Made by a program: the position numbers and the translations under genes
Assembly: GCA_041623535.1 (NCBI GenBank)
Contig: JBFJWR010000001.1
Coordinates: forward strand, 1 to 41,871
Reading direction: 5' to 3'
DNA length: 41,871 nt
Source: Pseudomonadales bacterium
GTDB taxonomy: Bacteria; Pseudomonadota; Gammaproteobacteria; Pseudomonadales; JBFGWM01
The notes under the pieces: model-generated
Told to the model about the DNA's origin: nothing
Databases searched by the model: none
The model's input: only the letters and a program-made list of their open reading frames with translations
Shown: positions 12,811-27,940 of the stretch, in pieces
Numbering within the stretch: the first letter of the stretch is position 1
Layout of the letters: each line of letters starts with the position of its first letter

Positions 12811-15800
12811 CTAGCCTTTCAGCCTGTCCTCGAGGTTGAATTGCGCAGTCAGGTGACGGGCCTTGTTAGTGGCGCCCCATTCGATATATGCACGACAACT
12901 CTCGGCGATACACTGGTCGGCTTCATCGTGGTGCCCTTCGGCGGCCAGCCAGCGTCCGCGGCATTCCGCGATGTAAGCCAGATCACTGGTAAATCCCTGT
13001 TCCCGTGCCGCATCGCGGCTCGCGGTGTAGAGTCCATCTACTGCGCGCGGCCGATTCTCTATCCGCGCGAGTTCCGCCTGGATCAGGTGGAGTTTGGACA
13101 GGAAGTTGAAGGGCGCGAATTGACACCAGTGTTCCATCTTCTTGTGCGATGCAAGAATCAGCTTCTTCAATTTTCCACGCTCGTTGCGGTCGGCGTCCGG
13201 ATACCTGGCCAGGCGAGCGAGGGCCGTGTGAAAGTGAAGATACGGTTCGTCGATGAGCCCCTGCACGTTCTCGATGTAGGATTCCGCCTCGAGCGCGAGC
13301 TCACAGGCACGGTTGTAGTCCCCGAACAGCCAGGCAAGCCGCATACTGGAAGCCGCGCTGATACCCAGGCCGGTGCGATCGTCAGAAGCAAGTTGCTCTT
13401 GCACCTGCTTTGCTTCGTCATACCATGGCCCCTGCATGCGGGCAGGATCACGGATGTCTGCATCAGCGAGGTTGGCGACGTACTGGGTCCAGATGCTCAT
13501 GTAGGTATGTGGCGTGATCTGATTGAGATTACGCACGGCCTCCAGGTACATCGGCATACTCCTGACCAGGCCCTGGAGATCTTTCCCGCAGTAAATTGCC
13601 GTCACGAAGTAGGAAATTGCACAATACGAGCCGTATTCGAAATCACCGTGATCAATACCGAACTGGTAGCCCTTCAGAAACGGATCGAGCGTATCGCCTA
13701 TTGGGCGCTTCCAGTGATGGATGAATTTGAAAAAATTGAAATAGGTTCTGGCGTGATACTCGTAGTCCTTGAACAGGTCCAGAACCCGCATGCCGGCCTG
13801 CCCGTAGCGGAAAGCCTGTTCATAATTACCCGTAGCCTGGGACACGATCAATCCATAAATAACCAAGGCGCTTGCCGATTCCGCTGACAAGCCATATTTC
13901 TGGGTCAGTTGTACCTGCCGGAGCACCACGATGGGAAACAGGTTGGGGCTGGCAATGTAGGACGCGGAGATCAGGCGACTGAGAATACGCATGGCTGATG
14001 ACACCCGTTGATCAGTGATCTCGGGCATGTCCGGAAAACTATCCGGTTTCGTATTCAGCAGCAGCATCCGCGTGTGGAGCAGGTGGCGCACCACGGACAA
14101 CTTTCCGGGATCCGGTTGCAGGCGAATCCCCAGGCTCCTGAGCACCGGTACCGCCTCCATGATAGCGTCCTTCATGCGGTTATTGGCCAGCAGTGCATCA
14201 ATGCGAATCTCGTGGCTGCGGACGTTGACCAATGTATTTTTCGAATGACGCAGGACTTCGCCGGTCAGCGAATGCATGGCTTGCTGGTTGCCGCTCAGGT
14301 AGGCGGCCTCGGCTGCTTCGTGGTGAAGATCAATCGTCAGTGAGCGCGCCGATTGCCAGGCATTTTTAGGCAGCATCTTTACGCCCAGGGACAGGAACTC
14401 AAAAGCCGATTGGTAGGCTGCCGATGCCATGGCTCGCTTGCCGGCGCGCAGGTTCAGTTCTGCGACCTGTACCAGTTCCTGTTCCTCGTAAATCAGGGTT
14501 CGTGCAACATTGAAATGATTTACGATTGAGAACAGATTCTTATCCGGAATATTTGCCTCACATGCTTCGACCAGCAGTCTGCCAATCTGCAGGTGGTTCA
14601 GCAGCCGCTCCTGCTGGCCAATCATTTCATAAGCAGCCTGCTGTACCCGGTCGTGCAGAAACGTATCACTGGCATTGATCATGGAGTAAGACCGTTCCTG
14701 CATCTGGGTCCCTTCGACGCAGCGCAGAAGATCATGGTTCGCATTGTCGGGGACCAACAGTCCCGCCTCGACAGCCGGCCACAATGCGGTTGCGATCTCT
14801 GTCATGGTCTGGCCGCATACCAGCGCCAGCGTGCGAATATCGAACGTGCTGCCAATGCAGGCACCGTGACGCAGGGCCTGCTGCGTGCGTCGCGGCAGCG
14901 AACTGATGCGATCGATGAGCAATTCGACGACGTTTTCAGAGACCGCTTTGCCGGCGATTTCCTGATCGTCCCAACACCATGCGTGCTGAATCGGATCGAA
15001 ACGTATATCGCCGCCGCTGTGCAAGGTCCGAATCAGGGTGCTGCAGGAAAAAGGGTTGCCGAGTGTCTTTTTCAGCACCAAGGCCGACAACGTGTTCAGT
15101 TTTTCGGTCGATTGCCGAAGCGTGTCTGCGAGCAGTTCGCGAATGTGCTCCTGGCTCAGGGGCGGCAGTTCGATGCGGGTGCTGGGTGTGCCTGACTTGT
15201 CGACTTCCTGCAGGACCCTGGTTAACGAATGTGTATCATCAACCTCGTTGTCGCGGAAAGCGCCGATGACCAGGAAATGGTTGTGGGCAGGACTGGTCAG
15301 GCAGTCCTGCATGAGTTCCAGGCTGCCGGCATCCGCCCATTGCAGGTCATCCAGGAACAGCACCAGGGGATGGTCGGCGCTGGTGAAAACCTGGATGAAA
15401 TCCCGCAGGCAATTGCGGAAGCGATTCTCGTTTTCTGCGGGATTCAGAAACCGTACGGGTTCACATGCACCCAGCAGGCGTTGCAGATCAGGGATTACCT
15501 CGACGACCACGCCGGCATTAACCCCGAGTCTTTCCCGAATCCGATCACGCCAGATGCCGCGCTCGGCCTCGGTCATGTTCAGGATCTGTCCCACCATGCC
15601 CGAGAATGCACTGACCACCGCAGAAAACGGTGTGGCCCGGTCGAATTGCTCAAACTTTCCGGTCAACAGGATGCCACCTGCCTCCAGCACAGGTTCCCGC
15701 AATTCTCCGATCAGGCTGGTTTTCCCCATGCCCGAAAAACCGCTCACCAGGGACAGCCGCCTGCCACCATCGGCCACGGCACGGAAGTCCTGCAGAATCT

Positions 15801-16737
15801 GTTCAATCTGCTGTTCACGACCATACAGTTTTTCGGGCAGGTGAAACTCTGCAGAGATATCCTGCATGCCCAGGTCAAATTTCGGGATACTGCATGTTGC
15901 TCGGAACTCAGTGAGGCAGCGGCTGATGTCGGCCAGCAGCCCAACCGCGGTCTGATAACGATCTTCCGGTTTCTTCTCCAGCAGGCGATGAACGATTGAA
16001 CAAAGCATTTCCGGCAGGTCAGGGCGCAGTTCCCTAAGTGGCGGCGCTTCCGCCGTGATGATTTCATTCAGGACAGAAACCGGATCGTCACTGGCGTAGG
16101 GCAGGTCTTTTGTCAGCATCCAGTAAAACAGGACGCCGAGTGAGTAAAAATCGGAACGATGGTCGACCTTGCGGGGTAGTCTCCCTGTCTGCTCGGGCGA
16201 CATGAAAAGCAGATCGCCGCTCAGTGCATGCCAATGATTCGCCGCTTGCTGCACCAGTTGCGTAGAGCGCCGCAGGCCGTGCAATATGACCTGGTTTTCG
16301 GCTTCATCCCAATGTACGTGTGCGGGTGAAATTGCCCGGTAAATAATCCCTTTTTTATGCAGAGACCCCAGTATTTCGGCCAGGGACCATGCAATGTTCA
16401 GCGCCTGGGCGGTGGTGATTTTCCGGTCTGTAACCCACTTGCGCAGTGGTACCGCGTTATGTGAGCGAAGGATGAGCAATGGGTTCAGGTCATCATCGAA
16501 AAAGTCGATCACCGGGGGGATGCCGGCTACGCCCTGGAGCAGCTTGCGTGTGGCATACTCCTGATGTAACTGCGCGAGTGCATGGGCGTCGTGATAGTCT
16601 GGGCTCAATTGCTCAATGACGACCGCCAGGCCATCAGACTCTCGCTCGGCCGCGAAGAGATTGCGGTCATCGATGCGCGCGATGAATTTGCCGTTCCGGT
16701 ACCCCGGCAGGTTGGGCGCTTGTGGCGCGTTTTCCAT
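12811..16737 (-). CDS. STAND-type signalling protein: degenerate Ser/Thr-kinase-like domain, AAA_16 P-loop NTPase and a long helical/TPR-like region
   Basis: The kinase-like fold has the family-typical MSPEQTGR...VDHRSDFYSLGV...RYQTAVGLLADISRC. Walker A is GFSGMGKTS and Walker B is LVLFLDDLQWAD. About 800 aa of helical repeats follow. The start is either the ATG at 16737 (MENAPQ) or the ATG at 16800. Confidence 0.8.
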   Translation of the reverse strand: MENAPQAPNLPGYRNGKFIARIDDRNLFAAERESDGLAVVIEQLSPDYHDAHALAQLHQEYATRKLLQGVAGIPPVIDFFDDDLNPLLILRSHNAVPLRKWVTDRKITTAQALNIAWSLAEILGSLHKKGIIYRAISPAHVHWDEAENQVILHGLRRSTQLVQQAANHWHALSGDLLFMSPEQTGRLPRKVDHRSDFYSLGVLFYWMLTKDLPYASDDPVSVLNEIITAEAPPLRELRPDLPEMLCSIVHRLLEKKPEDRYQTAVGLLADISRCLTEFRATCSIPKFDLGMQDISAEFHLPEKLYGREQQIEQILQDFRAVADGGRRLSLVSGFSGMGKTSLIGELREPVLEAGGILLTGKFEQFDRATPFSAVVSAFSGMVGQILNMTEAERGIWRDRIRERLGVNAGVVVEVIPDLQRLLGACEPVRFLNPAENENRFRNCLRDFIQVFTSADHPLVLFLDDLQWADAGSLELMQDCLTSPAHNHFLVIGAFRDNEVDDTHSLTRVLQEVDKSGTPSTRIELPPLSQEHIRELLADTLRQSTEKLNTLSALVLKKTLGNPFSCSTLIRTLHSGGDIRFDPIQHAWCWDDQEIAGKAVSENVVELLIDRISSLPRRTQQALRHGACIGSTFDIRTLALVCGQTMTEIATALWPAVEAGLLVPDNANHDLLRCVEGTQMQERSYSMINASDTFLHDRVQQAAYEMIGQQERLLNHLQIGRLLVEACEANIPDKNLFSIVNHFNVARTLIYEEQELVQVAELNLRAGKRAMASAAYQSAFEFLSLGVKMLPKNAWQSARSLTIDLHHEAAEAAYLSGNQQAMHSLTGEVLRHSKNTLVNVRSHEIRIDALLANNRMKDAIMEAVPVLRSLGIRLQPDPGKLSVVRHLLHTRMLLLNTKPDSFPDMPEITDQRVSSAMRILSRLISASYIASPNLFPIVVLRQVQLTQKYGLSAESASALVIYGLIVSQATGNYEQAFRYGQAGMRVLDLFKDYEYHARTYFNFFKFIHHWKRPIGDTLDPFLKGYQFGIDHGDFEYGSYCAISYFVTAIYCGKDLQGLVRSMPMYLEAVRNLNQITPHTYMSIWTQYVANLADADIRDPARMQGPWYDEAKQVQEQLASDDRTGLGISAASSMRLAWLFGDYNRACELALEAESYIENVQGLIDEPYLHFHTALARLARYPDADRNERGKLKKLILASHKKMEHWCQFAPFNFLSKLHLIQAELARIENRPRAVDGLYTASRDAAREQGFTSDLAYIAECRGRWLAAEGHHDEADQCIAESCRAYIEWGATNKARHLTAQFNLEDRLKG

Positions 16738-16987
16738 CGTGGGCCAATACTCCCGAGCCAACGCCCCGCAAACACCAGGGCGTATGAGCATCCTAGACAT
16801 TTCAGGGTCGTCCGGCCAGTCACCAAACGGCTTTCCGGGCTGTGGTGAATATTGGCGGGATGGCAGCGGTGCATTGACTCACAATGGACGACGGGTGCCT
16901 GGTTGGATGCCGCCATTATCGAATTCGCGCTCAACGAAGTGCCCACTACTGGATGCATTCCCCAATGAGCCCCACGAGGTTTCCAAC

Positions 16988-18001
16988 ATGAAAGCTGTCG
17001 CGCTTACCCACTATCTGCCCGCCGAAGACCCGAACGCGTTTCTCGACGTGGATCTGGCCATGCCCACTGCCGGGGGGCGTGATCTGCTGGTTGCGGTCAG
17101 GGCTGTTTCCGTCAATCCGGTCGATACCAAGGTTCGCAGTCCCAAGGATCAGGTCGAAGAGACGCCCCGTGTGCTCGGCTGGGACGCCAGTGGCGTGGTC
17201 GAGGCGGTTGGCCCGGACGTCACGCTCTTTCAGCCGGGGGACGAGGTCTACTATGCCGGGGATATCACCCGGCCTGGTTCCAACTCCGAATTCCAATTGG
17301 TGGATGAGCGCATCGTCGGCCGCAAGCCCGCGACCCTCAGTTTTGCTGAAGCCGCGGCGCTGCCGCTGACCACGATCACCGCCTACGAGGCGTTCTTTGA
17401 TCGCCTGGGCGTGGACCGGGATGGTGCAGACGCCGGACAGACCCTGCTCATCATCGGCGCCGGTGGCGGGGTTGGTTCCATTGGCATTCAGCTCGCGAAA
17501 GCGGCCGGGCTGGTCGTGATCGCCACGGCCTCGCGTCCGGAAACAACCAGCTGGGTCAGGGAGCTTGGTGCGGACCACGTGGTCAATCACCGCGCGCCCA
17601 TGGTGGAACAGGTGCGTGCGCTCGGGTTTCAGCACGTGGACCACGTCGCGATTTTCAATGACATGCGCCATTGGGAAACCGCAGTGGAACTGATCCGGCC
17701 GCAGGGCGGGATCGTCACCATCGATGACGCCAGCCTGCCGACGCCGATGGCAGGAATGAAAACCAAGGCGGCCAGTCTGCACTGGGAGTTCATGTTTGCC
17801 CGCGCCATGTTTGCAACACCGGACATGATCGAGCAGCACAATTTACTCAACTACGTGGCAGACGAAATCGACGCCGGCCGCATTCGTTCGACACTTACCG
17901 AAGTGCTGTCCCCGATTAACGCCGAAAACATCCGGGCAGCACATGCGCGCATAGAATCCGGACAGGTTAAAGGCAAGATTGTTTTGCAGTCTTTTCAGTA
18001 A
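16988..18001 (+). CDS. Zinc-binding alcohol dehydrogenase / quinone oxidoreductase family (MDR superfamily) protein
   Basis: The ATG at 16988 follows GAGG. The N-terminus (MKAVALTHY...LLVAVRAVSVNPVDTKVR) and the nucleotide-binding LLIIGAGGGVGSIGIQLAK fit the family. The track's 124-codon 5' extension overlaps the divergent STAND gene and is rejected. Confidence 0.8.
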   Translation: MKAVALTHYLPAEDPNAFLDVDLAMPTAGGRDLLVAVRAVSVNPVDTKVRSPKDQVEETPRVLGWDASGVVEAVGPDVTLFQPGDEVYYAGDITRPGSNSEFQLVDERIVGRKPATLSFAEAAALPLTTITAYEAFFDRLGVDRDGADAGQTLLIIGAGGGVGSIGIQLAKAAGLVVIATASRPETTSWVRELGADHVVNHRAPMVEQVRALGFQHVDHVAIFNDMRHWETAVELIRPQGGIVTIDDASLPTPMAGMKTKAASLHWEFMFARAMFATPDMIEQHNLLNYVADEIDAGRIRSTLTEVLSPINAENIRAAHARIESGQVKGKIVLQSFQ

Positions 18002-18123: not shown

Positions 18124-18534
18124 ATGACGGATTTCGTAAAAGTATTCGATGACAGTTTTGCGCGGGTCGTGGGTGTTGACGTACCGCAGGGTGATTTCTT
18201 TGCCCGTTTTTACCAGGAATTCACCGCGGCCGATCCGCGAGTCGCCGAGGCCTTTGCACAGACCGACATGGCGCGTCAGCAGTCCATGATCAAGAAATCG
18301 TTTTACTACATGGTGAACTTTTACGTCACGCAGGAAAGTTCCGACTATTTACAGAGGATCGCCGAACTGCATGGTTCTGGTGCGATGGGGATTGAACCGG
18401 CCCTCTACGATATCTGGCTGGAAACACTGCTCCGCGTTCTGGCAGACTCAGATCCCGGATTTACCCGTGAAGTCGAACTGGCCTGGCGGGTGGTGCTGGC
18501 ACCGGGCATTGCATACATGAAATTCGCGTACTAG
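18124..18534 (+). CDS. Single-domain globin-like haem protein
   Basis: The 136-aa protein follows a globin-fold spacing pattern: FFARFYQEFTAADPRVAEAF, then Q in RQQSMIKKSF, then a candidate proximal His in IAELHGSGAMGI, then YDIWLETLLRVL and ELAWRVVLAPGIAYM. Confidence 0.65.
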   Translation: MTDFVKVFDDSFARVVGVDVPQGDFFARFYQEFTAADPRVAEAFAQTDMARQQSMIKKSFYYMVNFYVTQESSDYLQRIAELHGSGAMGIEPALYDIWLETLLRVLADSDPGFTREVELAWRVVLAPGIAYMKFAY

Positions 18535-18603: not shown

Positions 18604-19698
18604 TCAGTCGCGAAAGGCATCGCGATGATAGCGGGCGGCTTCGCGCACCTCGGGAACACCGCATTCCTGAATTTTCTGAGGTTTTTTGCCGGCCAGGACT
18701 TCCAGCACCGCACGTACCCCGTGGGCCAGTGACTCGGTGTGGTAACCACCTTCCAGCACCAGTGCGAGGCGGCCGTTGCAGTGCCGGTCGGCGATCTCCT
18801 GAACGATGCCGGTCAGTGCTGCGAAGCCGCCGTACGTCACGTTGAGTGCGAGGTCGAGGCGGTGCGCATCAAAGCCGGCAGACACCAGAACGAGGTCTGG
18901 CTTGTACCACTCTGCGGCCGGCACGAGGATCTTCCGGAAGGCTTCGAGCAGTGCCGTGTCGCCGGCGCCGCCCGGCACGGGCACATTGACGGTCGTTCCC
19001 TGTCCCAGGCCGGCACCGATTTCGTGCATATCGCCGGAACCGGGATAGAAGGGGGCAGCCCGGTGAGTGTCGAAAAACAACACGTCGGGATCTGCCCAGA
19101 AGATGTCCTGGGTGCCGTTGCCATGGTGCGCATCCCAGTCCACGATCAATACCCGCTTGCAGCCGAGCGCTGCCTGCGCATGGGCTGCCGCGACCGCGAC
19201 GTTGTTGAACAGGCAGAAACCGCGCGCGCGGACCGGTTCGGCATGGTGACCGGGAGGCCGCACCAGTGCGAAGGCACTGCTGCAGCGACCCGCGACCACT
19301 GCCTCTACCGCGGCGATCGCGGTGCCGGCGGCAACTTCTGCCGCCTTTACGCTGCCGGGTGATACCGCGGTGGTGTCTTCATCGAGCCAGGCGTTGCGTC
19401 CACGCAGTTCGAAAATGTCTTCAAGGTACTGTGAGGTATGTACGCGGCCGAGTTGTTTGCGGGTGGCCACCTTGCCCTTTTCGAAGCGCACACCGGGTAC
19501 CGGCCGGGCCTTCAGCAGCTTCAGGATTTCCGTCAGGCGCCCGGGGTGCTCGGGATAGTTCCACTTGACCTCCAGTCCGGCAAGGACCTCGCGCAGGCGA
19601 CGGTCCAGCCTGCCGGGAAGGAATTCGTCCTGTACGTCGGGTCGGTGTTCCAGTACCCGCTCGTCGTAAAAGGCTATGACATCGCGGTCGCCGATCAT
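18604..19698 (-). CDS. Histone deacetylase-family Zn amidohydrolase (acetylpolyamine amidohydrolase / AcuC-like)
   Basis: It carries [47 protein letters not shown] and LEGGY. I prefer the ATG at 19698 (a GAGGA lies 10 nt upstream), which is 41 nt after the stop of the upstream gene. The track start at 19761 would overlap that gene. Confidence 0.85.
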
Positions 19699-19739: not shown

Positions 19740-21731
19740 TCAGGCACGGTCCACGGCCCAACTGGCCAATGCCATCTGCTCGATTTCCTCGCAGAGTGCA
19801 TCCGGTACCTGCGCCGGGTCCTGCTGTTCCAGTGGATCGTAGTGGAACAGGTACAACCTGGAGACAAACTCTGCGAAAGGCAGGGATGCTTCTCCCTGCG
19901 ATTCGCCGGTACCGGAAGTGGCGACCAGCACGCCGTTGCCCCAGTCCTGGCCGCTGTCGTTGTTGGGGTTATAAAAGTACACACGCATCTCGTTATTCTG
20001 GTCGAGCGCTACGCGTTGCAGCGTGATCGCGTGCCAGCCGATGAAGCGGCCGAGGGAGTCGGTGGCGGCAATGCCGGCCGGTTGCGGGTACATGACCGGT
20101 TTGTTGCCGTTGTAGAACGGGTGATAGCTGGCGTGAAAGCCACGGATGAAATCGTGGTAGTCACACAGACGCCCGTCCTCGATGCTGACCGCGATCGCGA
20201 AGCCATGACCCACCCAGCGGCCGTGGAACTCGGGGTTGATCCAGAAGTGCGGATCCTCGTCACGACCCTCGACCAGCTGTCCCATGTGTATGTACACACG
20301 ATCGAGGTGGGGGACCAGGATCAGCGAGACCGGGTCGAGATCCAGGTGCAGCCGTTCCATCGAGCCATCGACCATGGATGCCGAGGATAGTTGCTGCCCC
20401 TCGAAATACATGATGACTTCGCAATCGCGTGCTGCCCAGGTCAGTAGCTGCAGCAGATAATCCGGTTGCAGGTAGGCCCACATGGACAGTGCGCGGGCGG
20501 CCTGGCAGGTCGGGTTGTCACCCTGGCCGACACCCAGTGGCTGGCCGAGGATACCCAGTACGCCGGCGAGCAGATGGACTTCCGCAGGTTGCGCAGTGCC
20601 GTATGCGCAGGCGATGGTGTCGCGCACGCTGTCGTCCAGTTGCAGGTCGATCTGTCGCCACAGGCTGGGTCCGAGTGCCGGACTGTAAAGTATGCCGCGT
20701 TCGAGCATGCAGGCGAGGCCGTAGATGGCCTGGCAGGTTTCCGGGTAGACGGCGCGCTCAATCAGCGTGTGAATCAGTTCATGAAAGGTGAGCAGCACGT
20801 CGCGGCCGGTGCTGGAAAGACCCAGCGTCTGCGAAATGGCCTCCACGCCGCGATCCAACTGGAAGCGCAGCAGCACCGCGTGATAGGCAGACACCAGTCC
20901 GGTGTCATGCATCGCGCGTGCGCAACCCGCGGCTTCCTCCTGGATGCCCGCATCATCGAGTTGTTCCAGCCGTTCGCGGTAGATGTCCAGGCCCGGATCA
21001 TCCTGGCTGGCAACTGTCGGGTTGAACAGGGCACTGGTCAGGCGTTCGGCACCCCGGCCTGCCGAGCCCAGGTTCACGTCCGGATCGGCCATGCACACCG
21101 CCACGTTGGTCACCATGGTCGTGATGTGGTCGACCTTGATCGGCCGCTGGCGCAGCAGTCGCCAGATTTCCTCGATCAGTTCGTCCAGCATGCGGTCGTA
21201 GCCAACCTGTTCGACGATGAACTGAAACAGTCGTTGTACCTCGGCCTCCAATGGCTTGGTGCGGCTGGCCTCGTCACTGGTGCCGAATATGCGGCTGAGG
21301 TTGAGTGCCAGTACCGCACGCAGGAAGTGTTCTGCCTGCTCAGCCGATATGCCGGGGTGCTGGAACTGCGCACGCGCGATCGAGAGCATGCGCAACTGGT
21401 TCAGGCACTCAAGCGTGACATCGTTCAGTTCGCCCAGGTTGAAGCAGCCGGCCACGAGTTGCGGCTGGAGTTTTTCCGGATGGTCATAATCCGAACCCTG
21501 GAAGATGCCGGCCGTATCCAGCGTGGGCGCGGCGGCGTACAGCGGGGTCAGGCCGTTAGGATGCTTCAACAGTCGCTGTACGTAGCTGAGTACCTTGGCG
21601 AAATGCGCAGGTTTGGCAAAGTCTGCGGCGGCGGCCAGTTCGGAACGGGCGCGTTCCAGGCCATCACAGAGGCGCTGTAAAGCAGGGTCGATATCATCCG
21701 GCCCTGTGGGCGGGGTTGCATCAGGAAGCAT
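19740..21731 (-). CDS. Orphan 663-aa protein: helical N-terminal two-thirds, C-terminal putative papain/calpain-like cysteine hydrolase fold
   Basis: The ATG at 21731 follows GAGGTG with a 9-nt spacer (the track start at 21743 is a GTG). The motifs, in track numbering, are Q407-x5-C413 ([17 protein letters not shown]), H571 (GWHAITL) and N592 ([15 protein letters not shown]). An HELIH string occurs at 321-325. I recognise no family. Confidence 0.6.
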
Positions 21732-22077
21732 GCTTGAATTCACCTCGACACGGTTCGGGTTAATGTCGTACTTCAGTTACCGACAGGCATCGTGCGCGTA
21801 CGATAAACAGAAGCGACCCATCACGGATTGCAATCGTTATCATTGCTGATTCAAGCGCTTTTGGCTAATTCCTGCAGCGGTTTCCGCGAAACAGGTCTGC
21901 GATGCATTCGTGACGAGCGCAAATATTTGTTACGCTCATGCAACTGATTTGATTTCCTTCCCTGGTGCGTAACTACTGCAAAACATTGCCGGTAGGGGTG
22001 ATTGTCGACTCGGTGCACCCCGTGGGAATCCGGAATGGAAGCTGGCAGTCCACTTCAATTCAACACAGGAGCGGAAC

Positions 22078-23304
22078 ATGACCGATAAGAATCCGGACAA
22101 GGGCTACGTTGCCCTGCTGGGCTGGTCTCTCAACGCCATCGAGGCGCTTAATCAATTTGACCGTCGCTTCGTGGTGGTGGCCCCGGATTGGGCCGAGGAG
22201 TACGCGCGCGAGCACAACATTCCGTTCATTCCGTGGAATTTTGAGCGGCTGAACGACCGTTCCCACGAAATTGCACAACAACTGAAAGCAGAGGGAGTGG
22301 ACGTCGCCATTCCGTTGTTCGAAGAAACCGTCGAATGGTCCGGCGCGATCAATTCGGTGCTGCTCGGTAACCCGCGATTGCTCGGCCAGTCGATGTTGTT
22401 TCGCGACAAGGCCCTGATGAAGCGCCGTGCCCAGTTGGGTGGCATTCGCGTGGGTATCTTCGAGGAAGCGCATGACAAGGACGACGTGGTCCGCTTTCTG
22501 CGCCGGGTCAATCAGACGCTGCTCAAACTCGATGGCGATCCGAATGATCCGATTCACCTCAAGGCATTCGACAAGGCCGGTTGCCTGGGTCACCGCGTGA
22601 TCCGTACGGTGGAGGATGTCGAATCGATTACCCCCGACGAATTTCCGGCATTGCTCGAAAGCCATCTGGACGGCTGGGAGTTCGGTGTCGAAGCCTGGAT
22701 CCAGGACGGCAAGATCCGCTTCCTGAATATCTCCGAATATGTCCGCCTGGGCTATTCCGTATTCGTGCCGGCTTCACCGGAACTGGAAAAATGGCGGCCA
22801 CGACTGGAGGAGGAGATCAACAAGCTGATCGAGACCTTCGAAATTGATTTTGGCTTCATACACCCGGAATACTTCGTTACCAGTGACGGCAAGATGTACT
22901 TCGGCGAAGTGGCCTACCGGCCGCCCGGCTTCAAGGCTTTCGAACTGATTGAACGTGCCTACGGATTCAACTGCTACCAGGCGCAGGTGGTGTGCTTTGA
23001 TCCCAAGTCCACCCCGGAAGAGGTCGAGTCGTTCTTCCCGCGCCCGGTGGTGGATGCCAAGGGCCATGCCGGTTGTTTCGGCGTGTATCCGCGTCTGCGG
23101 GTGGTCAGCAAGCTGGAGATTCCGAAGGAAACCGAAGAGCACGAGTACTACGAGTATCACGACCTTGCGCTGCCACTGGAAGAGACCGTGACCAAGCGCT
23201 CGGCGTTCGGTACCCATTGGGGGCTCGTCTACTTTTTCGGGAATGATCCCGATCGCATGCGTGATTTGCTCGCGGCGCAGGAAGAACTGGATTTCTATAT
23301 CTGA
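22078..23304 (+). CDS. ATP-grasp fold carboxylate-amine ligase (similar in size and layout to L-amino-acid ligases)
   Basis: An AGGAG lies 6 nt before the ATG. A pre-ATP-grasp Rossmann-like N-terminus is followed by LFRDKALMKRRAQLGGIRV, IHLKAFDKAGCLGHRVI, LLESHLDGWEFGVEAWIQDGKIRFL and GFIHPEYFVTSDGKMYFGEVAYRPPG. This is the usual ATP-grasp strand/loop pattern. Confidence 0.75.
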   Translation: MTDKNPDKGYVALLGWSLNAIEALNQFDRRFVVVAPDWAEEYAREHNIPFIPWNFERLNDRSHEIAQQLKAEGVDVAIPLFEETVEWSGAINSVLLGNPRLLGQSMLFRDKALMKRRAQLGGIRVGIFEEAHDKDDVVRFLRRVNQTLLKLDGDPNDPIHLKAFDKAGCLGHRVIRTVEDVESITPDEFPALLESHLDGWEFGVEAWIQDGKIRFLNISEYVRLGYSVFVPASPELEKWRPRLEEEINKLIETFEIDFGFIHPEYFVTSDGKMYFGEVAYRPPGFKAFELIERAYGFNCYQAQVVCFDPKSTPEEVESFFPRPVVDAKGHAGCFGVYPRLRVVSKLEIPKETEEHEYYEYHDLALPLEETVTKRSAFGTHWGLVYFFGNDPDRMRDLLAAQEELDFYI

Positions 23305-23449: not shown

Positions 23450-23839
23450 ATGAAGATTGTTCGATTGCAGAACCTGATCGGTACCGAGCGGGAAGTGAAG
23501 GGCCCTGGCTGGATCAGCCGCCGCCTGCTGCTCAAGAAAGACGGCATGGGGTTTTCCTTTCACGATACGGTGATACCTGCCGGCGCGGAATTGCCACTCT
23601 GGTACAAGAACCACCTGGAAGCCGTGTACTGCGTCAGCGGCAACGGTTCCATCAAGGATCTTTCGACCGGCGAGATCCACGAGATCAGTGACGGAACGCT
23701 GTACGCGCTGAACGATCATGACCAGCACATTCTCTACGGTGGCACCGAGGACATGCGCCTGGTCTGCGCGTTCAATCCGCCGGTGACCGGCAACGAGACG
23801 CATGACGCCGACGGTTCCTACGAACTGGTTGATGAATGA
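23450..23839 (+). CDS. ectC: EctC-type cupin (L-ectoine synthase family), solitary
   Basis: The 129-aa protein is collinear with characterised ectoine synthases as I recall them (Halomonas elongata EctC): MKIVRL..., [53 protein letters not shown]57, Y85 and H93 occupy the positions of the reported iron ligands. Confidence 0.85.
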
Positions 23840-23953: not shown

Positions 23954-24682
23954 ATTGAATCCCTGCCGCTGACGGCAGTACGGATCACCACTCTGGATCA
24001 GCAGGTCGCGCTGACCAACGCCACGGGCTTTTTCTTCCGGCGCGACGAGCGCCTGTTCCTGGTCACGAGCCGGCACGTGATGGTGGATGCACCGAGCAAA
24101 CACTACCCGGACCGGCTCGAGATCGAGCTGCATGTCGATTCGCACAACCTGGCCGATTCCACCGGTTTCTCTATCCCCCTGTACCGGGACGGCAAAAGCA
24201 TCTGGCGCCAGGCCACTGATGCGGCCGGTGAGATCGACGTGGCGGCGATCGAGATCGAACAGCAGGCGCTGCCCGACACCATCGTCTATCGCGCCTTTAC
24301 CACCGACCACCTGCTGGCCCCGGACGCGCAGGTCGCCATCGGCACCTCGTTGCTGGTGGTGGGCTTTCCGCTGGGGTTTCACGATACGCTGCACCACATG
24401 CCGGTGGCGCGCCACGCCGTGATCTCCTCCTCTTTCGGCCTGCGCTTCCAGGGCGAGGGCTACTTCATCACCGACGCCCGCACGCACCGCGGGATCAGTG
24501 GCGCACCGGTGGTTATGCGCGCCACCGGTAAAGCCGGTGCAGCGCAGGACCTGCCCTGGACCCTGCTCGGCATCCACTCCGCGCGCCTCGATGTCGGTAC
24601 GCGCGATCTGAAACTCGACGAGGCCCTCGGCCTCAACTGCTCGTGGTATGCGGATATATTGATGACGCTGACTGAGGGTTGA
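23954..24682 (+). CDS. Trypsin-fold (S1/S1C-like) serine peptidase; 5' end unresolved
   Basis: The Ser motif is THRGISGAPVV, the Asp is in GEIDVAAIEI, and the His is in LFLVTSRHV (codon 24074-24076). The frame is open from 23864 but the first ATG/GTG/TTG is the GTG at 24077, after the His. I provisionally place the start at ATT 23954; an AGGGAG sits at 23930-23935. Confidence 0.6.
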   Translation: MESLPLTAVRITTLDQQVALTNATGFFFRRDERLFLVTSRHVMVDAPSKHYPDRLEIELHVDSHNLADSTGFSIPLYRDGKSIWRQATDAAGEIDVAAIEIEQQALPDTIVYRAFTTDHLLAPDAQVAIGTSLLVVGFPLGFHDTLHHMPVARHAVISSSFGLRFQGEGYFITDARTHRGISGAPVVMRATGKAGAAQDLPWTLLGIHSARLDVGTRDLKLDEALGLNCSWYADILMTLTEG

Positions 24683-26049: not shown

Positions 26050-27009
26050 TTAGGGCGGTGGGGAGTCGGGGTCAAATCCTGTTGCACTTTCGCTGCTGTA
26101 AATTTCTCCCTGCAGGGTGCGGCCGTCCATTCGGCGTACGTCCTGCATGGCGGAAATCTTGCCCAGGCGGTAGGCGCGCCGATAGAGTTCGCGCGCGACC
26201 TCGCGCTCTCCGCGCCCCTCCATGAGGCGCGCAGCCTGGAATGCGCCCTCGGCCACCTCCCGGTCGGAGGCCTTTAAAAACTGCTCCAGCGCCTGCCGGG
26301 GATCTTTGCGCACGCCATCACCCACGAGGTAAATAAAGCCCAGCGCCAGGTGGGCGGGGCCGTAACCCTTTTCCGCAGACTGCTGGTAGAGCGTGATTGC
26401 GCGCTCATTATTCGTCGCGTAGACGCGACCCCGGTGGTGCAGGGTGCCAAGGTGGTACATGGCCGGGCCATTGCCCTGTGCCGCGGCATTCTCATAGAGA
26501 CGCGCTGCGCGCATGTAGTTTTGTTGCAGGCCGATGCCATTCTCGTACGACCAGCCCAGGAACAACTGCCCTTCGGCATTGCCGCTTTCGGCGGCCTTGC
26601 GCGCCCAGTGTACGGACAGCGTCGGGTTCGGCTCGACGCCCAGCCCATGGTGATAGCGATGGGCCATTTCGGCCTGGGCGTCGGTATTGCCCAACTTGGC
26701 GGCCGAGTAGTAATGCCTGGCTGCCATGTTCTCGTTTTTTTCCACGCCGGTGCCCGAGGAATATGCCTGGGCAAGACGCAGCAGCGATTTTTCGTGGTGG
26801 GGACTGCCCGCATTAGCGGCGTTCTGTTCCAGCCAGGCGATTGCATCCGCTGCCCGTGGGCCACCGAGTGCGGCATCCGCCTCAATCAGTGAGCCCACCG
26901 AGCCGCGGTATTCAGATGCCGGGGGCTTCTCTGGCGCGCTCCCGCAACCGGGAAGCAGCAGGACGGGCAGAAGTGCCAGGCAGCCCAGCGATGCGAGCCG
27001 CTTATTCAT
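26050..27009 (-). CDS. Sel1-repeat (SLR/TPR-like) lipoprotein
   Basis: The signal peptide has lipobox LLPGC. Repeated Sel1 units follow (AQAEMAHRYHHGLGVEPNPTLSVHWARKAAESGNAEGQLFLGWSYENGIGLQQN...). Its start overlaps the stop of the upstream paralogue by 8 nt. Confidence 0.8.
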   Translation of the reverse strand: MNKRLASLGCLALLPVLLLPGCGSAPEKPPASEYRGSVGSLIEADAALGGPRAADAIAWLEQNAANAGSPHHEKSLLRLAQAYSSGTGVEKNENMAARHYYSAAKLGNTDAQAEMAHRYHHGLGVEPNPTLSVHWARKAAESGNAEGQLFLGWSYENGIGLQQNYMRAARLYENAAAQGNGPAMYHLGTLHHRGRVYATNNERAITLYQQSAEKGYGPAHLALGFIYLVGDGVRKDPRQALEQFLKASDREVAEGAFQAARLMEGRGEREVARELYRRAYRLGKISAMQDVRRMDGRTLQGEIYSSESATGFDPDSPPP

Positions 27010-27940
27010 GGCCGGCCTTTTCGCGGATGCGGGCCAGCGCCTCGCCGGCCTGGGCGATTCCTGCGGCTTCTGCCCGCAGGTAAAGCTGATGGGCGGCTTC
27101 TAGGTCACCGTCGCTCTCCTTCACCTGTCCGAGGAAGAATGCGCCCAGGGGGTGCCCGCGGTCGGCTGCCTTGCTCAGCCAGTCACGCGCCTGTTGCTTG
27201 TCCTGCGGTACCTTTTCGCCCTGGAAGTAGAGCAGGCCCAGCTGGATCTGGGCGGCGGCAAAACCCTTTGCTGCGGATTCGCGGTAGAGATCCAGCGCCC
27301 GGTTGATGTCCTCCGGCACACCATCGCCATTCTGGTACAGCACGGCGAGGTTGTTCTGGGCGATGGGGTCACCGCCCGCGGCCGCTGCCTCGTAGTAGCG
27401 GACGGCCGCGGCCAGGTCTTTCTCAACACCAATGCCGAAATGATGCGCCCAGCCCATGTACTGCTGGCCCTGCGGATTGCCCTGTTCGGCGGCGCGCCCG
27501 GCCCAGTACAAAATCTGATCGGTGTTGCGCTCCACGCCGACCGCGAAATCGTAACGGCGTGCCATTTCCGCCTGCGACTCGGCATCACCGCCATAAGCCG
27601 CAGCACGGATGTAGTCGGAACCGATTTCCAGGTTTTTCTCCACACCCAGACCGCGTGAATACATCACGCCCAGCGCCTTGCTCGCGGCAACCTGGTCGGG
27701 ATGGTCCGGCTGCTCCGCGATGTACTGGAACAGGTCCAGGGCGGCGACATAGTCCCGCTCGTTGAATGCCTGCACGGCGGCGCGCAATTCCTCGCCAACG
27801 GACTGGGGCTGAGCCGGGCTTGCCGGCGACTGGGACGGCTGCGGAGCGCCGGATTCCTGCGTGGGTGCCGCGCAACCCGCCAGCAGCGCGAAGTACAGCG
27901 CTGTGGCAGGCAGGCGGAGCCGGTGTGATATTGCCGCCAT
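27002..27940 (-). CDS. Sel1-repeat (SLR/TPR-like) lipoprotein, paralogue of the downstream gene
   Basis: The lipobox is LLAGC. Sel1 units read SQAEMARRYDFAVGVERNTDQILYWAGRAAEQGNPQGQQYMGWAHHFGIGVEKD... The ATG shares one base with the aminotransferase TGA (TGATG). Confidence 0.8.
   Translation of the reverse strand: MAAISHRLRLPATALYFALLAGCAAPTQESGAPQPSQSPASPAQPQSVGEELRAAVQAFNERDYVAALDLFQYIAEQPDHPDQVAASKALGVMYSRGLGVEKNLEIGSDYIRAAAYGGDAESQAEMARRYDFAVGVERNTDQILYWAGRAAEQGNPQGQQYMGWAHHFGIGVEKDLAAAVRYYEAAAAGGDPIAQNNLAVLYQNGDGVPEDINRALDLYRESAAKGFAAAQIQLGLLYFQGEKVPQDKQQARDWLSKAADRGHPLGAFFLGQVKESDGDLEAAHQLYLRAEAAGIAQAGEALARIREKAGHE

Follow-up and report, generated by a model that had tools for sequence, protein, structure and literature searches.

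A protein of 663 amino acids (aa), encoded at 19,740–21,731 on the minus strand of a 41,871-nucleotide (nt) stretch of Pseudomonadales DNA (contig JBFJWR010000001.1; "the window" is used below for the whole stretch that was analyzed), probably represents a new family with a new two-domain architecture within the known papain-like superfamily. Its gene is paired with a gene for an ATP-grasp ligase, and the two are inherited jointly as a cassette in bacteria of different phyla. Based on the predicted fold and on analogy with known enzyme pairs, we favor, with moderate confidence, the reading that the protein is a cytoplasmic two-domain papain-fold thiol enzyme that acts on the product of the ligase, most likely by hydrolysis. 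The family occurs in hundreds of bacterial species, among them the industrially important Halomonas, the oil-degrading Alcanivorax and Marinobacter and the clinically relevant Nocardia, and yet it is not covered by a Pfam or NCBIfam model and carries no annotation other than "hypothetical protein". A papain/calpain-like domain with invariant Gln, Cys, His and Asn residues, paired near-obligatorily with an ATP-grasp enzyme, provides a testable biochemical hypothesis for these proteins.

The putative catalytic residues are located in the C-terminal domain, and their conservation was determined in an alignment of 333 distinct full-length homologues with identities down to approximately 30%. Gln403 (20,523–20,525, minus strand), the putative oxyanion-hole residue six positions before the cysteine, and Cys409 (TGC, 20,505–20,507, minus strand), the putative nucleophile, were found in all 333 sequences. 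His567 (CAC, 20,031–20,033, minus strand), the putative general base within the motif G-x-H-A-[IV], was found in 331 sequences and Asn588 (AAC, 19,968–19,970, minus strand), the putative His-orienting residue within the motif N-P-N, in 329 sequences. Asn590, which is kept in 328 sequences, is an alternative candidate for the His-orienting residue. The four residues were singled out in a preliminary description of this DNA, and the finding that 329–333 of the 333 homologues keep each of them is, as judged from the alignment, far beyond chance. The family motifs are G-x-x-Q-G-x-N-P-T-C-Q-[SA]-x-R, G-x-H-A-[IV] and Y-F-x-N-P-N. Equally fixed in the C-terminal domain are the polar residues R413, D466, S469, H495, N499, R573, R583, Q595, E610, E614, S616 and H630, and near-invariant residues in the N-terminal domain include L88, E108, R114, Q195-R196-P197, T277-G278 and H284. 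One divergent homologue of 611 aa (P0181) has kept the cysteine, with the catalytic His replaced by Leu and the Asn by Ser; this protein may represent a branch of the family that has become a pseudo-enzyme.

The reading frame starts with ATG and ends with the stop codon at 19,740–19,742, and a third-position GC content of 0.75 supports the frame. An in-frame GTG located four codons 5' of the ATG would give a protein of 667 aa, which corresponds to the numbering of the preliminary description. The ATG start was preferred because a Shine-Dalgarno sequence, GAGGTG (21,741–21,746, minus strand), precedes it with a 9-nt spacer. ATG numbering is used throughout, so that the residues formerly listed as Q407, C413, H571 and N592 are Q403, C409, H567 and N588 here. 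The open reading frame (ORF) and the protein strings quoted earlier were all confirmed: a 17-residue string from residue 402, GWHAITL from residue 565, a 15-residue string from residue 584 and HELIHTLIE from residue 317. The codon coordinates given for the Cys, His and Asn residues were also exact. The protein has neither a signal peptide nor a membrane segment, and the absence of a hydrophobic segment (maximum 19-residue Kyte-Doolittle mean of 1.38) and the excess of Asp and Glu (88) over Lys and Arg (46) indicate that it is soluble and acidic.

The protein had been called an orphan, which turned out to be wrong. A word-indexed HMMER search yielded at least 2,590 clusters (90% identity) that match the protein at E ≤ 1e-3, all of which are annotated as "hypothetical" and none of which contains a Pfam domain. 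When 1.84 billion representatives were searched exhaustively with a profile, 306 clusters (50% identity) were obtained, approximately 60 of which are full length (589–694 aa). Typical members of the family have a length of about 610–690 aa. In a scan of one genome per species, relatives were encoded in at least 591 species from seven or more phyla. The hosts include Halomonadaceae, Alcanivorax, Marinobacter, Methylophaga, Haliea, Guyparkeria and Ectothiorhodospiraceae, and other hosts include Nocardia, Pseudonocardia, Hoyosella, Phormidium, Rhodospirillaceae, Paracoccaceae, Bacillaceae and Desmospora. Relatives were also found in metagenome-assembled genomes (MAGs) of Cyclobacteriaceae, Polyangiaceae and Dehalococcoidia. 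Scans of Pfam, NCBIfam and PADLOC identified no model for the protein. Thus, the earlier statement that it cannot be assigned to a family holds in the sense that no named family matches, but not in the sense of an isolated protein, as there are thousands of homologues.

Structure prediction supported a division of the protein into two domains. The full-length AlphaFold2 (AF2) model, which was based on a 36-sequence alignment, had a predicted local distance difference test score (pLDDT) of 78 and a predicted template modeling score (pTM) of 0.50. In this model, the N-terminal domain (residues 1 to approximately 390; 20,562–21,731, minus strand) is helical, which bears out the earlier impression of an all-helical N terminus. 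The domain is specific to the family and has no fold relative: a Foldseek search with the full-length model gave no significant match for it to a solved structure, the calpains included. The C-terminal domain (residues approximately 391–663; 19,743–20,561, minus strand) is of mixed alpha/beta structure and is modeled as a papain-like domain of the clan CA type. An AF2 model of residues 385–663, based on a 78-sequence alignment, was of high confidence, with a pLDDT of 92.9 and a pTM of 0.90. Cys409 directly precedes the helix 410–421 in the full-length model and is the first residue (residue 25) of the helix 25–37 in the C-domain model. His567 is located in the strand 563–576 (His183 in the strand 179–192 of the C-domain model) and Asn588 at the end of the partner strand 582–587 (Asn204, ending the strand 198–203). 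The register of the hairpin suggests that His567 and Asn588 are placed roughly opposite each other. In the models, a Cys at the start of a helix with the His and the Asn on the two strands of a hairpin is the arrangement seen in papain-fold enzymes.

Comparison of the C-domain model with the PDB by Foldseek resulted in papain-type cysteine peptidases for all of the top 29 matches. The best match was m-calpain (3bow_A; probability 0.91, E 0.011, query template modeling score (TMq) 0.41, 301 columns), followed by other calpain cores, falcipain, bromelain, staphopain, Pd_dinase, PepW and cathepsin B. Staphopain was the first match of the full-length model (E 0.4), and papain-like peptidases were returned with weak scores from a viral structure library. 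All of these top matches belong to cluster I of a classification of papain-like enzymes (PMC10318531). With the papain/cathepsin family C1, staphopain C47 and bleomycin hydrolase/PepW of this cluster, the protein shares a Gln six residues before the Cys, as in Gln19 and Cys25 of papain, additional helices that separate the core helix from the sheet, and a putative Cys-His-Asn triad. It differs from them in that the matches had E ≥ 0.03, in that it is cytoplasmic and lacks a propeptide and a signal peptide, and in its domain architecture. Based on these models, the C-terminal domain is likely to be a very divergent domain of the clan CA type.

The calpain core (MEROPS C2, PF00648; 3bow/3df0, 1mdw, 1kxr) is the structure closest to the C-domain model, with about 290–300 aligned columns. 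The order of elements is the same in both, with Gln-x5-Cys at the start of a helix, His-Ala on a strand, Asn-Pro on the next strand and then Trp-Gly. However, the spacing from Asn to Trp is 2 in calpain and 9 residues in the 663-aa protein, which has no detectable sequence similarity to calpains and has a conserved ATP-grasp partner. Accessory calpain domains (the C2-like domain III and the penta-EF-hand) were not detected, as the Pfam scans found no domain of any kind in the protein. Membership in the calpain family C2 was not supported, with no PF00648 match at E ≤ 10 in 51 members and an hhalign probability of 0.7% for the calpain-1 core.

The second line of evidence comes from gene neighborhoods, which were compared in 85 loci, the window included. 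The preliminary description had suggested an operon with a downstream gene for a histone deacetylase (HDAC)-family amidohydrolase. This gene is not a conserved neighbor; the conserved partner, which that description did not mention, is the gene for a 408-aa ATP-grasp enzyme of the L-amino-acid-ligase type (22,078–23,304, plus strand), which is divergent from the 663-aa gene in the window. The ATP-grasp gene adjoins the 663-aa-family gene in 76 of the 84 other loci. It is located directly upstream and co-directional in 72 loci, with a median gap of approximately 37 nt between the two ORFs, and is not co-directional in four loci; three of these are from Alcanivorax, where the genes are adjacent and divergent, as in the window. 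The pair is also found in Bacillaceae, Hoyosella, Cyclobacteriaceae, Desmospora and Polyangiaceae. Clustering of all ORFs of the 85 loci revealed neither a third conserved gene nor a small precursor ORF around the pair, the other clusters being shadow ORFs or clade-specific neighbors. A full-text literature search found no paper on this gene pair.

Pairwise identities of the two proteins from 73 loci are correlated (r = 0.79), and the ligase is the more conserved protein in 99.5% of the pairs, with a mean identity of 83% as compared to 68% for the 663-aa-family protein. Among Gammaproteobacteria, Nocardia, the cyanobacterium Phormidium and an alphaproteobacterium of the Rhodospirillaceae, the ligase is 73–80% identical, whereas the 663-aa-family proteins of the same genomes are only approximately 52–57% identical. 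The mean column identity of the ligase was 85% in a cross-phylum alignment of 20 sequences. The slow evolution of the ligase could be explained by recent horizontal spread combined with strong constraint, or by a macromolecular substrate. NCBI names the ligase "carboxylate--amine ligase" and its partner "hypothetical protein". The domain model PF13535 (ATP-grasp_4) matched 20 of 20 ligase orthologues (best E 9e-7), each single match being below the Pfam gathering score. Profile matches in the PDB were the L-amino-acid ligases 4wd3 (RizA type) and 3vot (BL00235), plus 4dim. The partner ligase resembles RizA and BL00235, its best PDB profile matches, in its size of approximately 410 aa and in the ATP-grasp_4 domain, but these matches, at E 1e-3 to 4e-3, are weak and do not extend beyond the central ATP-grasp region.

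Some loci contain variants of the cassette. In the Bacillaceae loci L085 (3,350–8,827) and L086 (3,281–8,821), from Peribacillus and Metabacillus, the ATP-grasp gene is accompanied by two paralogues of approximately 655 and 608 aa. The shorter paralogue lacks the last approximately 30 residues, and all of them keep the Gln, Cys, His and Asn residues. A divergent gene for a 188-aa GNAT-like acetyltransferase is present in both loci. A protein of 928 aa (P0309; locus L089, 6,845–9,631) consists of an N-terminal ArgJ domain (PF01960) fused to a paralogue of the 608-aa type. On the same contig, the ATP-grasp gene is reduced to a C-terminal piece of 136 aa; this is a single Logan assembly in which an assembly or frameshift artefact is possible. 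In a Cyclobacteriaceae MAG (L088, 8,986–10,143), the stop codon of the 663-aa-family gene lies within a 7-nt overlap with a gene for alanine racemase, so that the two may be translationally coupled. This gene was seen once, and a hint at D-amino-acid chemistry is possible.

Because the 663-aa-family gene is inherited together with a gene of the L-amino-acid-ligase type, we propose that its product acts on the product of the ligase. The pair probably makes and processes a peptide-like compound. In the suggested scheme, the ligase would spend ATP to form an amide or peptide bond, and the 663-aa protein would take this product as its substrate. Cys409 would attack the carbonyl to form a thioester acyl-enzyme, with His567 serving as the base, Gln403 stabilizing the oxyanion and Asn588 orienting the His. 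Hydrolysis by an amidase or peptidase activity would then give a regulated turnover of the product, and the cassette would be a pair for synthesis and breakdown. Hydrolysis is favored because the cassette contains no carrier protein or other biosynthetic genes, and by analogy with glutathionylspermidine/trypanothione synthetase-amidase (PMC2427367), in which an ATP-grasp C:N ligase and a papain-like Cys-His amidase act on the same amide bond. The likeness is one of functional logic: in the synthetase-amidase, the two activities are fused in a single chain with a small CHAP amidase and a synthetase of the Gsp type, whereas in the system described here, separate genes encode the cluster-I/calpain-like domain and the ATP-grasp enzyme, the latter being of the L-amino-acid-ligase type. 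The invariant charged residues R413, D466, H495, R573, R583, E610, E614 and H630, which surround the predicted catalytic core, suggest a small charged amino-acid or peptide substrate rather than broad proteolysis. If this reading is correct, the protein would be a new family for the classification of cysteine peptidases. If the pair makes and degrades a new peptide-like metabolite or a protein tag, it would constitute a new small pathway in bacterial stress physiology.

Several results weigh against this reading. The Foldseek statistics are weak, with all E-values at or above 0.011 (none below 1e-3), template modeling scores of approximately 0.4 and root-mean-square deviations of 7–8 Å. In the full-length model, the loop of residues 400–408 just before Cys409 has a pLDDT below 50. 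At the sequence level, no recurrent match emerged when 51 diverse homologues were scanned against Pfam at E ≤ 10, and searches of PDB sequences with the single sequence (phmmer) and with a 36-sequence profile (hmmsearch) returned noise only. An hhalign comparison of a profile of 331 C-domain sequences with the human calpain-1 core, whose sequence matched 1zcm over the identical length with 748 bits, gave a probability of 0.7%, and the probability was also below 1% for papain. An adjacent ATP-grasp gene is missing from 8 of the 84 other loci; no alternative partner was found in these loci, where the neighbors are housekeeping genes without a relation to the pair (Mqo, pyruvate kinase, glucokinase and the Mrp antiporter). 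Finally, hydrolysis and transfer are inseparable in silico. The papain/calpain-like site proposed in the preliminary description is thus upheld in that the residues are near-invariant down to 30% identity, the predicted secondary structure places them as in clan CA enzymes and papain-type enzymes are the first Foldseek matches, but no match is statistically significant.

More tentatively, the cassette might be a widespread and hitherto unrecognized two-enzyme system for "write and erase", in which the near-invariant ligase attaches an amino acid to a conserved metabolite or to the C-terminus or a side chain of a protein, and a new calpain-like thiol peptidase removes it. Its hosts are Gammaproteobacteria from saline habitats, actinomycetes of the Nocardia type, Bacillaceae, Bacteroidota, Myxococcota and cyanobacteria. 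If true, the system would be a bacterial analogue of tubulin tyrosination/detyrosination or of the glutathionylspermidine cycle, possibly linked to osmotic or redox stress.

A possible but less favored alternative is that the protein is a transacylase or transpeptidase, in which the same fold and triad would serve to load the product of the ligase, or an activated acyl group, onto Cys409 and to transfer it to an amine acceptor, giving an oligomer or a conjugate. Acyl transfer by a papain-like fold is known from phytochelatin synthase (PMC10318531). Cooperation between a papain-fold enzyme and an ATP-grasp enzyme is documented for CtaD/CtaG in closthioamide biosynthesis and for BtrJ/BtrH in the butirosin system (PMC7183216), where a papain-fold Cys-His-Asp enzyme transfers the acyl group via a thioester. 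The large N-terminal domain and the invariant polar residues could form donor and acceptor sites, and two paralogues beside one ligase in Bacillaceae are what a multi-step assembly would need. However, these systems depend on carrier proteins and belong to biosynthetic clusters, and CtaG and BtrH are assigned to PF11814/PF14399; none of this was seen for the pair described here. The surroundings of the pair contain no carrier protein, pyridoxal phosphate-dependent decarboxylase or other biosynthetic gene, conservation is limited to the two genes, and the cassette is embedded in housekeeping genes, not in a biosynthetic cluster.

It is unlikely, in our view, that the protein is a calpain-like regulatory peptidase directed at proteins, which either would be unrelated to the chemistry of the ligase or would remove an amino-acid tag that the ligase has added to a protein. 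The tubulin tyrosine ligase (TTL)/vasohibin cycle and RimK-type tagging are analogues of such a tag eraser. Consistent with this alternative, the best structural match is a calpain protease core, the ligase is 73–80% identical across phyla, as if it were recognizing a conserved macromolecule, and substrates could dock on the large helical N-terminal domain as a scaffold. However, the ligase is similar to L-amino-acid ligases, whose substrates are free amino acids, rather than to RimK or TTL, the ORFs of the 85 loci revealed no linked candidate target gene, and membership in the calpain family failed at the sequence level.

We consider it improbable that the protein is a non-catalytic pseudo-enzyme, with a papain fold that would serve the ATP-grasp enzyme as a scaffold or a binding protein. 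The pTM of the full-length model is only 0.50 and the homologue P0181 has lost the His and the Asn, which would fit this explanation, but the near-absolute retention of the Gln, Cys, His and Asn residues over seven or more phyla argues for an active enzyme, as pseudo-enzymes normally lose these residues.

There is similarly little reason to place the protein in a deacetylation pathway with the product of the downstream HDAC-family gene (18,604–19,698, minus strand; PF00850, E 4e-93). The two genes are on the same strand and separated by 41 nt, as stated in the preliminary description, with no terminator-like site between them in the window, and their co-transcription is possible there. Adjacency is not general, however: an HDAC homologue adjoins the 663-aa-family gene in 2 of the 84 other loci (L008 and L034) and is found within 6 kb in 3 of the 84. 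The orientation also varies, being convergent, on the opposite strand, in L008 and co-directional in L034, while the gene is distant in L077. Loose hints at acyl or acetyl chemistry come from the divergent GNAT gene in Bacillaceae and the single ArgJ fusion, but an HDAC gene is absent from the neighborhood in all other phyla examined. Thus, the HDAC link as a general property is largely refuted. The closest PDB structures to the HDAC protein are the catalytic domains of HDAC6 and bacterial deacetylases of the HDAH/acetoin-utilization type (E 1e-105 to 1e-60), and the copy that faces the cassette convergently in locus L008, from an Alcanivorax MAG, is 76% identical. Together with the divergent arrangement of the ATP-grasp gene, which was seen in Alcanivorax loci only, this points to an Alcanivorax-related gammaproteobacterium as the source of the window.

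A zincin-type metallopeptidase that uses the HELIH string of the helical domain (H317–H321; 20,769–20,783, minus strand), a motif proposed earlier, is rejected as highly improbable: although the HExxH string is present and M3 oligoendopeptidase F is among the non-significant matches of the full-length model (E 0.6–1.9, template modeling score approximately 0.1), H317 is kept in only 31 of the 333 homologues (Arg being the most common residue at this position), E318 in 160 and H321 in 140, an HExxH string occurs in 4% of shuffles of the protein, which is the level of chance, and no metallopeptidase Pfam match was obtained in the 51 members.

Of the other genes in the window, the one nearest to the cassette on the ligase side is that for the ectoine synthase EctC (23,450–23,839, plus strand; PF06339 4e-56, NCBIfam 7.5e-56), which is located 146 nt 3' of the ATP-grasp gene and stands alone, with neither ectA nor ectB adjacent. 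EctC-like genes were found within 6 kb of the cassette in a Methylophaga locus (L037) and a Paracoccaceae locus (L082), giving 3 of the 85 loci with the window included, and their presence may be a coincidence in ectoine-producing halophiles. An ORF for a 201-aa Trypsin_2-like serine peptidase (24,077–24,682, plus strand) is situated downstream of ectC, followed by genes for two tandem Sel1-repeat proteins of 319 and 312 aa (26,050–27,940, minus strand). On the other side, a 136-aa ORF (18,124–18,534, plus strand) that is convergent with the HDAC gene matched globin/protoglobin models weakly, with E 2e-3 and a score under the Pfam threshold. A 1,329-aa ORF (12,811–16,800, minus strand) contains Ser/Thr protein kinase and AAA_16 ATPase domains, as in a STAND-like signaling protein. 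At its start, it overlaps with the neighboring ORF for a zinc-type alcohol dehydrogenase (16,616–18,001), the 5' end of which is over-extended.

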